Below, in pieces: positions 1,647 through 5,570 of a stretch of 32,000 nucleotides of DNA; positions within the stretch are counted from its first letter, which is position 1; every line of letters starts with the position of its first letter. The notes beneath the pieces are model-generated. The model was given only the letters and a program-made list of their open reading frames with translations. It was not told the DNA's origin and searched no databases. The translations under genes and the position numbers were made by a program. Source of the DNA: Promethearchaeota archaeon (lineage in GTDB: Archaea > Asgardarchaeota > Lokiarchaeia > Sigyniarchaeales > SOKP01). The stretch spans positions 1-32,000 of the forward strand of contig JAUWGH010000004.1 in the NCBI GenBank assembly GCA_030606485.1, given 5' to 3'.

Positions 1647-1883
1647 TCATATATCGCAATCTTCTAATATTTTGTTGATGTCTTTATCTTGTAGGAATTC
1701 TCTCGCGTCTGTATAGCGATACACCCCAAATTTTCCAAGTATCTTTTTTATCCGTCTATTAAGAGTGTTATATGAAATCTTATATTCGGACAAAAGCTCT
1801 TTAATTGTCTTCCAGTTCTTTATATCGTTTAAAAATTTCTTAACTTCTTTTTTTTTTCTCATTTTTACCTCGTAGGAAGGCAT
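1647..1883 (-). CDS. stand-alone HTH-like protein, paralog of the C-terminal domain of the GIY-YIG endonuclease at 3002..3898
   Basis: Ungapped alignment KFLNDIK...FLQDKDINKILEDCDI vs KFLEDIK...FLQDKDIDEIMEEIDK gives 30/63 identities. An identical 19-mer is at 1681-1699 and 3036-3054. An in-frame TAG lies immediately upstream of the ATG. Confidence 0.7.
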   Translation of the reverse strand: MPSYEVKMRKKKEVKKFLNDIKNWKTIKELLSEYKISYNTLNRRIKKILGKFGVYRYTDAREFLQDKDINKILEDCDI

Positions 1884-3001: not shown

Positions 3002-3898
3002 TCATTTGTCGATTTCCTCCATTATTTCATCAATATCTTTATCTTGTAGGAATTTTTTCGCTTCTGTTGGATTATTTATACCGTATTTTCCAAGGATTTC
3101 CTTCACTCTCAATCTCACTGTATCTTCCGACATCTTGTATCTAACCGCAAGAGAACTTGTTTTCAGCCCAGATTTTATATCCTCTAAAAATTTACCAATA
3201 TCAGGTATTTTTATCTTTCTCCTCCTGTTTGATTCAGCAATTATTGTAGCAATTCGTTTTCTATATTTTGGATCTTTAAATTTTTCATCCATTATCTTTT
3301 TCATTGTCTCACTCCCCTTTGCTCTAAGAACCGGGTCTTTATTTCCCCGTATTAATTTATCCCTCATTCTTTTTCGAAATTCCGGATCTTCTTTGCGTAA
3401 CTTTTCTACTTCTTCGCGACCTTTTCGATTAAAATTTATCATCCATTTTCTATACTCAGCATCTTCTTGATATTTCCGTTTTAATGTATCTCTGATTTTC
3501 TTTATAACTTCTTCACTCTGACTTCCGACTCCTCCATCTGTCATATTGTATCCTTTCTCTCTATGTGTTGAATCGTACTCTTTAATCCAATGTTTTTCCT
3601 TTTCATCTAATTCTTCTTGTGAATACGCTACGTCTATCTGTTCCAATTTCCAAACAGATTCATCATACTTTGCTATAGCATTATTTAAACGAGAACCAAA
3701 TATCTTTTTATCAGGTTGTTCTATTCTAAGTCTTTTAACTGCCCTTCCCTCTGTAAGATGCTCAAGCCATCTTTTTCTTATTGGTTTTACCGTTTCACCA
3801 ATATATACCTTTCTGGTAAAGGTATTAGTTGCTAAATAAATGTATCCGAAAGGTTTTTTTGTAGAATTTTGGTTGTTCACACAATTTTTTTTACACAT
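3002..3898 (-). CDS. GIY-YIG family endonuclease (homing-endonuclease-like) with NUMOD3-like helical repeats and a C-terminal HTH-like domain
   Basis: GYIY(18-21)...YIG(32-34), R43, H47, E101 and GYN(116-118) match the GIY-YIG core. The middle has SEEVIKKIRDTLK and DAEYRK/DPEFRK/DPVLRAK/DPKYRK repeats. SD-like GAGGTG lies upstream. Confidence 0.9.
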   Translation of the reverse strand: MCKKNCVNNQNSTKKPFGYIYLATNTFTRKVYIGETVKPIRKRWLEHLTEGRAVKRLRIEQPDKKIFGSRLNNAIAKYDESVWKLEQIDVAYSQEELDEKEKHWIKEYDSTHREKGYNMTDGGVGSQSEEVIKKIRDTLKRKYQEDAEYRKWMINFNRKGREEVEKLRKEDPEFRKRMRDKLIRGNKDPVLRAKGSETMKKIMDEKFKDPKYRKRIATIIAESNRRRKIKIPDIGKFLEDIKSGLKTSSLAVRYKMSEDTVRLRVKEILGKYGINNPTEAKKFLQDKDIDEIMEEIDK

Positions 3899-3905
3899 TT
3901 TTTTG

Positions 3906-4167
3906 CATACACCTCACATTGTTTTAATTTCATGGGGCGTTGTGAGGTTTTCGACATTTATGATTTTAGGGGGGATTCTTTTTACCCCCCGACCTCGCAA
4001 GAGGGAAAATCATTAAATAGTTCGAAAACTTGCCCCATGTGAGAAATTAAAACAAAAGTAGGGTGTAATATAAGATGTGTAATTAACATTATGAACAACC
4101 CATAACATAAAATAACCTACAGGATAACTATTTTAGCAACATACACCTTACCCGAAGGGTAAAAGTG
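3906..4167 (-). ncRNA. putative structured RNA / 5' leader of the GIY-YIG gene
   Basis: Nested inverted repeats: 3919-3931/4043-4055 (13 bp perfect), 3931-3938/4032-4039 (8 bp), 3947-3954/4022-4029 (8 bp), 3956-3967/4006-4018 (12 bp, one bulge). They close two hairpins, 3969-3990 (G6/C6) and 3993-4004 (CCTC-GCAA-GAGG). Further hairpins at 4086-4108, 4109-4134 and 4148-4162. Function and transcribed strand are inferred. Confidence 0.65.
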
Positions 4168-4435
4168 AAAGAAAAAGCTTTTAAAAAAAATAACAAAACT
4201 TAAAATGACATCTAAAAAGTATTAAGGCGAAAAACTAGACAGAGAACTAAATCCACGATAATTGAAAAAATCCTTATTTTTAAGTATCTATGTTACATGG
4301 TATATGCATCTAATCTATCTATTTATTTTATAATTTATACGACAATAAACAAAAAACAAAGATTTTCTCAAATTTTTTTAAAAATTTTTTATTATAAAAC
4401 CTATCAAATAAATAATTTATAAGAACTGAGAACCG

Positions 4436-4954
4436 ATGAATGAAGAATTAGAAAAATTATCCAAGGAGGAATTGATTAAATATATTGAAGATATCTCTAA
4501 GAACTGGATCTCGATAGATGGTACATGGTTCCAGACGGTGGAAAATGACCTAGGACTTGAAAAAGCCATGGAGCTTAATATTAAACAATGGACAAGATTT
4601 ACGGTTATTGAAGCTAAGAGAATTATGAAAAGATTTAATATTCCTCCAAATGGAGGAATTCCTGCGTTGATTAAAGCTTTAAAATTCAGGGTTTATGCGA
4701 ACATAAACATACAAGAAACCATTGAAATCTCTGAAAATCGCTGTGTATTTCGAATGAACAATTGCCGCGTTCAATATGCAAGGAAACAAAGAGGGTTGCC
4801 TGATTTTCCTTGTAAAGGAGTTGGCTTGGTTGAATATGGTCTATTCGCTAAAACAATAGATCCACGCATAGAAACTAATTGCATTTGTTGTCCGCCAGAT
4901 CCTCATCCGGAAGAATATTTTTGTGCTTGGGAATTTATTCTAAAGGATAAATAA
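4436..4954 (+). CDS. DUF6125-like protein (V4R/HNOB-like small-ligand-binding fold)
   Basis: W-x-x-x-DG-x-WF motif (NWISIDGTWF) and C-terminal Cys pattern CRVQ...FPCK...CICCPPDPHPEEYFCAWEF. Confidence 0.75.
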   Translation: MNEELEKLSKEELIKYIEDISKNWISIDGTWFQTVENDLGLEKAMELNIKQWTRFTVIEAKRIMKRFNIPPNGGIPALIKALKFRVYANINIQETIEISENRCVFRMNNCRVQYARKQRGLPDFPCKGVGLVEYGLFAKTIDPRIETNCICCPPDPHPEEYFCAWEFILKDK

Positions 4955-5115
4955 TTAAATAAAAAAAAGGATATTATAGAGAAAAATTTACAAGAATAAA
5001 CTTAATATTAAACAATGGAAAAGATTTACAGTTATTGAAGCTAAGAGAATTATGAAAAGCTTTAATATTCCTCCAAACGGAGGTATTCCAGCGTTGATTA
5101 AAGGTTTAAAATTCA
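4574..5115 (+). repeat. 115-bp direct repeat (4574-4688 and 5001-5115)
   Basis: Ungapped, 7 mismatches in 115 nt. The second copy is an internal piece of the DUF6125-like gene with no start codon. Confidence 0.95.
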
Positions 5116-5570
5116 ATTTTTATGAAAAACCACGTACTCTAATGCCACTTTTATCCCTAAAAGAACGTTAAAACAGTTTTAATGAAATTGAACTAGGTTT
5201 TAATAAAAATTTGGTCTTAGAAGAGGCGAACCGATGTTTAAGATGTGATTTACGTTTTGAAATCTCACCTGTAGTGTTTCCCCCTCAAAAATGGTTGGAA
5301 TTAACCGATGAGAATATTCAAACTGTGCCTGAACTTGAAGGTGCGATTCAAGTTTTAAATGAGAATCAAGTGATAATCCTCATACAAGGAACCGCTAATT
5401 TACGTTTAACATTGGAAGAACAATTAAAGAGCAATACTAAGGCTTGTTACTTTAATTATTATGAAGACCCTATGTACACAAAAAGGGAGAGTGAATTACT
5501 TCAACAATTTATACAAGAATTTGGGAGATTCCCTGAGGGTAATGAAGATCTTGACGATGATCTATTTTAA
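5001..5570 (+). pseudogene. chimeric remnant: DUF6125 fragment fused in frame to the C-terminus of a GltD/SudA-like flavoprotein with a degenerate GIY-YIG-like tail
   Basis: One frame reads LNIKQW...GLKF-NFYEKPRTLMPLLSLKER*NSFNEIELGF...EEANRCLRCD, with an in-frame TAA at 5169-5171. ER..F.E.ELGF...EA.RCL.C is the typical GltD-family C-terminus. Track ORF 5211..5570 is its 3' part. Confidence 0.7.

Follow-up and report, generated by a model that had tools for sequence, protein, structure and literature searches.

Masking of the ribosome-binding site (RBS) is the classic means by which phage homing endonucleases are kept nearly silent. RBS-sequestering hairpins are described for homing-endonuclease genes of the T-even phages and Aeh1, namely I-TevI, I-TevII, I-TevIII, segB and mobE (Edgell, Gibb and Belfort 2010, PMC2988022). 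In the T4 arrangement, long transcripts are masked and a promoter lying just upstream of the ORF gives translatable RNA (PMC2988022). One further system can be set beside the locus described here. In the RNA-IN/RNA-OUT pair of IS10/Tn10, a transposase gene is under cis-antisense control. The papers on Asgard mobile elements that were consulted describe no GIY-YIG cassettes. The window analyzed here is a stretch of 32,000 nucleotides, the first 32 kb of contig C2 in a 3.75-Mb Asgard archaeal genome of 13 contigs and 29% G+C. A preliminary description of this DNA had pointed to the RBS hairpins of T4 intron endonucleases, a precedent that it cites correctly (PMC2988022), and had proposed that mutually exclusive folds of a leader gate the translation of a nuclease gene.

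The gene in question is free-standing and carries a weak SegE_GIY-YIG match besides its GIY-YIG domain (Table 1). In a 12-sequence alignment the catalytic-core columns of the nuclease are invariant. Its N-terminus is nearly identical among homologs down to ~50% overall identity (P0001-P0006) and the same in P0003, P0004 and P0006, which supports the ATG at 3898 as the nuclease start; the closest homologs by protein identity are P0001 (96%) and P0002 (84%). As judged from this alignment, the gene encodes an intact GIY-YIG nuclease of the homing type, with a putative homing activity. Two short ORFs, one in the window (1647-1883, minus strand) and one elsewhere (G000:C5:5050-5238), resemble the C-terminal HTH-like tail of the nuclease alone, at 46-54% identity over ~65 aa, and relatives possess long GIY-YIG proteins with several repeats of this tail.

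A non-coding stretch of 537 nt separates the nuclease from a divergent DUF6125 gene (4436-4954). Synteny with a genome of the same genus (G001) takes in the DUF6125 gene and ~120 nt of its promoter region and ends near 4315, so that all DNA to the left of this point, leader and nuclease included, is strain-specific. Downstream of the DUF6125 gene, a 126-nt segment (4999-5124) is 91% identical to an internal part of the G001 DUF6125 gene, and appears to be a partial duplicate. The leader has a relative in L135, a marine-sediment metagenome contig in which it precedes a GIY-YIG gene 36% identical in protein. A coding region on the rod-shaped part of the leader was rejected for both strands, as no ORF of at least 50 aa lying there is conserved in L135.

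Table 1. Features of the nuclease gene and its leader, with positions in the window unless another source is named.
Feature	Position	Strand	Basis
GIY-YIG homing-endonuclease-like gene, free-standing, 298 aa	3002..3898	-	Pfam PF01541, E 2e-7
SD region, GAGGUG at 3915-3910, 11 nt before ATG 3898-3896	3908..3918	-	16S complementarity
Main rod with three-way tip (hairpins 3993-4004 and 3969-3990)	3919..4055	-	MFE and centroid agree
Local SD complement, exact 8 nt, in 3′-arm internal loop	3941..3948	-	Watson-Crick match
Invariant A-rich 16-mer of 3′ arm, candidate internal TATA-like box	3955..3970	-	Conservation
SD-flank complement, exact 7 nt, overlapping 5′-arm bulge (4-nt)	4037..4043	-	Watson-Crick match
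Long-range anti-SD partner, 5′ strand of second closing helix	4058..4067	-	Fold, P 0.88-1.0
Partner of start codon and codon 2, 5′ strand of outermost helix	4075..4082	-	P 0.71-0.95
Candidate upstream TATA-like box for full-length leader	4107..4114	-	Block conserved between window and L135
Upstream second copy of SD-plus-AUG 9-mer	4140..4148	-	Repeat family D4
ORF-less rod copy	L215 5034-5239 = G065:C37:93033-93238	-	Covariance model

The SD-like GAGGUG region ahead of the nuclease is complementary to the 3′ end of the same genome's 16S rRNA. Genome-wide, GAGG and GGTG are enriched at starts, with start positions that peak near -14 and -12, and by the evidence of these start regions the genome uses SD-led initiation. 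In the nuclease leader the two words begin at -17 (GAGG) and -15 (GGTG), on the long edge of the genome's observed range, the spacing being ~3 nt longer than the mode. The preliminary description had assigned three partners to the SD region, and the coordinates and sequences of all three proved correct; as it had stated, the local and SD-flank complements overlap segments left unpaired in the rod, in the 3′-arm internal loop and the 5′-arm bulge respectively. The long-range partner contains an exact 6-nt complement (4062-4067), which the fold extends to nine pairs with one bulge, reaching 4058. The 9-mer said to occur twice (3906-3914 and 4140-4148) does so, with 11 of 12 positions identical when the repeat is extended to 12 nt. 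Each copy opens a tiny ORF that is out of frame, 5 and 4 codons long respectively (3890-3907 and 4122-4142, minus strand), with an SD-to-AUG spacing of only 1 nt; these are not conserved in L135. In 5000 dinucleotide-preserving shuffles of the 252-nt leader, an SD complement of at least 7 nt arose in 5.2% and one of at least 8 nt in 1.0%, the 8-mer and 7-mer came together in 0.02%, and no shuffle had all three. The rarity of the combined 8-mer and 7-mer argues that the SD complements did not arise by chance.

The rod itself folds at -84.3 kcal/mol (z = -6.5), far more stably than its shuffles. In the equilibrium ensemble, the SD region (3917-3908) pairs with 4058-4067, most bases with P 0.88-1.0, the AUG pairs with 4075-4077 (P 0.85-0.95; the range is the same for the AUG and codon 2 together, on 4075-4080), and 3898-3891 pairs with 4075-4082 (P 0.71-0.95), while none of the other SD partners reaches P 0.02 in the full-leader ensemble. 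On transcripts that carry the 5′ arm, both the SD and the start codon are thereby predicted to be buried by the base of the rod. The predicted cost of opening 3918-3886 in the full leader is 17-20 kcal/mol. De Smit and van Duin reportedly established a relation between start-site structure and initiation, by which a cost of this size would reduce translation by orders of magnitude. When 18 Asgard GIY-YIG loci were folded from -200 to +20, only the window (z -8.5) and L135 (-5.9) were structured, the rest lying at ~0; the structure is therefore a property of the cassette and not a product of base composition.

An nhmmer search with the leader over the collected loci gave L135 as the sole homolog among the matches listed. 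The L135 leader folds into the same rod (z -4.1), with its SD held by a 5′ ACACC-containing partner (P ~0.95), its AUG held by a CACAU partner and an opening cost of 21-23 kcal/mol. Between the window and L135, the ACACC core of 4058-4067 is invariant and the CACAU core of 4075-4082 is conserved, both amid diverged flanks. A covariance model built from these two sequences found one further copy, in a genome of the same family (G065), at 117 bits. No nuclease gene follows this copy. Mutations have altered its SD and AUG and degraded its 5′ partners, the equivalent of 4058-4067 included, and its sense fold reaches a z of only -2.25, but the upper rod persists. In G065, the rod and the start of a conserved phosphatase-like gene are ~160 nt apart, and the neighboring DNA encodes a 384-aa leucine-rich-repeat protein. 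Across 21 genomes of the genus of G065, synteny spans only the phosphatase-like gene, and the rod is again found at the edge of strain-specific DNA.

In the alignment of the three copies (window, L135 and G065), paired cells make up 95.5% and two-sided changes are seen at 13 pairs; slid controls, whose partners were moved by one to three columns, give 34-59% paired cells and 1-5 such pairs. Most of this covariation lies in the rod; in the closing helices one of ten pairs has changed on both sides, and this in the ORF-less copy alone. Since the two ORF-bearing copies hardly differ in the closing helices, pairing there rests on conservation and energy, not on covariation. The three-way tip is partly conserved, and 11 of the 13 pairs in a central 13-bp helix never vary. 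By these comparisons, the ~190-nt rod is a conserved element. It is also a very rare one. The covariance model detected nothing beyond its two source sequences in 45 sources (Asgard GIY-YIG loci, related loci and the window), and order- and class-level searches (151 genomes each, in overlapping samples) added G065 alone, giving two in ~160 genomes of the class. Searches of IMG/VR returned no matches to a two-part motif, and a protein scan there gave distant phage GIY-YIG genes alone. Within the 3.75-Mb host genome the rod is single-copy.

Further sequence blocks were observed around these loci. A 48-nt block with a small hairpin, 83% identical, is common to L135 (523-569) and L215 (5347-5394) upstream of the rod, at a distance of ~425 nt with an 80-aa ORF in L135 and ~70 nt in G065; it may mark the true left end of the element. 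A second subfamily of Asgard GIY-YIG genes (L055, L057-L061, L064, L133, L136, L137) carries a conserved cassette of its own in the 60 nt before the ATG. This cassette has a TTTAAATA-type box at ~-50 to -42, no SD and no structure (z ~0), is found across different genomes, and looks like a portable promoter. Known classes of element were also considered for the rod. Rfam 15 gave no match at gathering scores over the whole window, and one chance sub-threshold match, outside the rod, when an E-value threshold was applied. A group I intron or other Rfam family was rejected as no covariance model matched, a bulge-helix-bulge intron as the central helix has 7 bp with unequal loops, not 3-4-3, and a dispersed hairpin repeat of the MITE, REP or Ssn-target type as the element is single-copy in the genome.

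Whether the leader is a switch or a fixed mask can be judged from its alternative pairings. Of the earlier proposal, the sequestration of the RBS agrees with the pairing probabilities of the SD and AUG given above; the switching does not survive, as the alternatives lie 9.6-18.1 kcal/mol above the MFE. Forcing 3941-3948 onto the SD costs 18.1 kcal/mol and needs melting of the lower rod, and forcing 4037-4043 onto the SD flank costs 9.6 kcal/mol and needs a register shift of the lower rod. Capture of 4062-4067 by the upstream 9-mer in place of the SD, which would make the 9-mer an anti-sequestor, costs 17.1 kcal/mol. Each of these, the last included, has P <0.02 in the partition-function ensemble, contrary to the claim of mutually exclusive folds of like energy. 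A pseudoknot joining 3941-3948 to the SD on an intact rod was rejected, since we judge it sterically excluded: it would have to bridge ~20 stacked pairs without a linker. Kinetics would favor the masked state too, since the closing helices merely extend a rod that forms before the SD is transcribed.

The conservation expected of the three motifs is likewise divided. The long-range partner is kept in L135, while the bulge partner at 4037-4043 has no counterpart there and the upstream 9-mer is absent from both L135 and G065; of the local complement, just a CCUC core is kept in L135 and G065. Alternative folds of comparable energy and conserved alternative pairings, the marks of a conformational switch, are thus both lacking, the latter in L135 and G065. 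No ligand-binding or other trigger element is evident in the leader. From modeling, the leader looks like a fixed translational mask, not a conformational switch.

The additional complements find a different role when RNAs with progressively shorter 5′ ends are folded (window and L135). With a 5′ end at or beyond 4070, the SD is masked by its long-range partner. At ~4056 the SD is half free and its opening costs just 2.7 kcal/mol, and from ~4030 to 3950 the local complement becomes the dominant mask, with an opening cost of 9-13 kcal/mol. At ~3940 the SD is still mostly paired (7.5 kcal/mol), and from ~3932 and shorter it is free (mean P(unpaired) 0.78; 3.9 kcal/mol). Masking is lost once the 5′ end passes ~3935 in the window or ~1185 in L135, which shows the same behavior with a different local partner. 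As the masks replace one another along the series, the complements look like layered masks and not like switch states; that is, the extra SD complements look like redundant masks for transcripts with different 5′ ends.

Candidate promoters can be placed for both a masked and an unmasked transcript. The TATA-like box at 4107-4114 sits 23-27 nt before the first closing helix, and its 7-mers are enriched 1.6-1.7 fold in the genome's promoter zone; it would start a full-length leader at the rod base. The A-rich 16-mer at 3955-3970 is identical in all three copies save one A/T position. An archaeal-type start ~26 nt downstream of it would fall at ~3932, where the SD becomes free, and its 7-mers are weakly enriched in the promoter zone (1.1-1.3 fold). 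This 16-mer is a candidate internal promoter that would give translatable RNA. A search for it in 400 genomes, with one mismatch allowed, gave mostly noise, and three other exact matches were not the rod element.

Taken together, these data are best explained by a conserved ~190-nt rod leader that would travel, among Asgard archaea, with a single subfamily of free-standing GIY-YIG homing-endonuclease genes. On sense transcripts carrying the 5′ arm, two extra helices would close the rod, one formed by the anti-SD mimic 4058-4067 with the SD and the other by 4075-4082 with the AUG and codon 2. With the SD and AUG closed in helices, ribosome access would be blocked by default and the nuclease made at a trickle, and the other SD complements would serve as back-up masks in RNAs without the 5′ arm. 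If productive translation is regulated at all, its simplest source would be a shorter transcript that begins downstream of ~3935, for which the A-rich box in the 3′ arm is the candidate promoter; this would be the two-transcript logic of T4 I-TevI, segB and Aeh1 mobE. The analysis establishes the pairings with their energies and conservation, and the covariation of the rod; the existence of the sense RNA, its start site and the repression of its translation are what we infer here. A fixed rod-shaped translational mask on an Asgard GIY-YIG nuclease, possibly bypassed by an internal promoter, is a reading that we hold at roughly even strength. Several findings count against it. A mask would need far less than 140 nt of rod and a three-way tip, the rod is equally stable on the antisense strand and exists in an ORF-less copy, the SD spacing lies beyond the genome's mode, and the internal box is a weak promoter match.

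Because the rod folds equally well on the opposite strand, and because an ORF-less copy exists, there is room for an antisense RNA or a DNA-level role. The selected fold could lie on the plus strand, as a stable cis-antisense RNA over the SD and start that represses the nuclease in trans or in cis in the manner of RNA-OUT. In the three copies, the plus-strand fold equals or exceeds the sense fold in stability (-78 vs -71, -66 vs -59 and -53 vs -33 kcal/mol, antisense vs sense), its z is equal or better (-6.45 vs -6.53 in the window, -4.82 vs -4.07 in L135), and the three-sequence consensus fold is stronger (-53 vs -34 kcal/mol). A strand test on the consensus counts 16 G-U cells vs 3 A-C cells, which would lean toward antisense. 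However, most of this asymmetry traces to the decay of the G065 copy and to consensus pairs that are mis-registered, and G-U counts in single-sequence folds (9 sense, 13 antisense) favor neither strand. On the plus strand, one tip hairpin of the window has a GNRA tetraloop, but this is not conserved in L135 or G065. A T-rich TATA-like run ~26 nt before the rod base could serve as a plus-strand promoter, but T7 and T8 runs (3884-3904) at the proposed start would be archaeal terminators, and no terminator follows the rod on that strand. The better retention of the antisense fold in the ORF-less copy argues in its favor. On balance, we consider an antisense RNA of this kind unlikely.

Alternatively, the palindrome may act as DNA, as a binding site, operator or cleavage site for the nuclease, as a cassette end or insertion hot-spot, or as back-to-back promoters, with its RNA folding incidental. 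The equal foldability of the strands and the ORF-less copy suit this reading as well, as does the position of the rod, which in both the window and G065 lies at the margin of strain-specific DNA, next to conserved host genes. Moreover, binding of I-TevI to an operator at its own promoter has been described (PMC2988022). The central 13-bp helix is near-invariant in both of its arms (4002-4020 and 3955-3970), which contain A-rich BRE/TATA-like words in opposite directions; in the plus-strand reading of the 5′ arm, these words are enriched 2.2-2.7 fold in the genome's promoter zone. The two arms may form a back-to-back promoter pair. Against a role as DNA, the 13 compensatory pairs outside the invariant helix and the three-way junction of the tip, formed by two local hairpins, fit a single-stranded fold better than a duplex bound by protein, the single-copy rod cannot be a MITE, a REP-like repeat or an Ssn-type target repeat, and a search for a target-site duplication and terminal repeats found none. 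We regard a DNA-level function as improbable.

The solo copy in G065 suggests that the rod may move and persist with or without the ORF. It is conceivable, though rather doubtful, that the rod is an autonomous partner of the cassette, either an antisense or guide-like RNA or a DNA recognized by the GIY-YIG protein, in which case Asgard archaea would possess a GIY-YIG mobile element associated with an RNA or a hairpin. Doubtful to a greater degree is a stable structured RNA that acts outside translation, for instance in processing, in stability or in the binding of a protein or of the nuclease, with the SD overlap secondary. The excess size of the rod, its partly conserved three-way tip and the retention of the upper rod in the ORF-less copy would fit such a role, but in each of the ORF-bearing copies the fold reaches precisely across the SD and AUG, members of the family are very scarce in the class, and Rfam has no match. 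Very unlikely, finally, is a conditional on/off switch of nuclease translation built from three or four mutually exclusive pairings: in the window copy the set of three complements departs statistically from chance, a CCUC-containing stretch is retained in the 3′ arm of all three copies, and with a TSS upstream of 4148 the upstream 9-mer could be an anti-sequestor while the RNA is being made, but the energies, the probable kinetics and the loss of the bulge partner and 9-mer discussed above all speak against it, and neither an aptamer-like conserved pocket nor an Rfam match was found.

Should the rod prove to be a mask, it would extend the RBS-masking strategy to Archaea, in the form of a much larger covarying rod on an Asgard cassette, and would add an uncatalogued structured element without an Rfam family. 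To our knowledge, almost nothing is known experimentally of SD-dependent initiation in Asgard archaea, and the leader offers a concrete test bed for both such initiation and its occlusion. Compared with IS10/Tn10, the locus shares a long, imperfect and antisense-foldable stem-loop over the RBS and start of a nuclease or transposase gene of a mobile element. Here, however, the fold takes in ~140 nt upstream of the gene overlap, and the enzyme is a GIY-YIG nuclease where that of IS10/Tn10 is a transposase. Functionally, the hairpin-regulated genes of T-even phages and Aeh1 come closest to the present locus, but they differ from it in residing in phages and not on an Asgard archaeal chromosome, in masking the SD with a short hairpin where a ~190-nt rod with a three-way tip is found here, and in their sigma-dependent late promoters, whereas a putative TATA/BRE promoter logic would operate here; the AUG and codon 2 are buried here besides the SD, and there is no sequence similarity between the systems. 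What they have in common is, first, that the SD of a homing-type nuclease gene is enclosed in a highly stable RNA structure, here a predicted one, that needs upstream sequence to form, such that a transcript starting inside or after it would be translatable, and, second, that the cassette brings its own control region.
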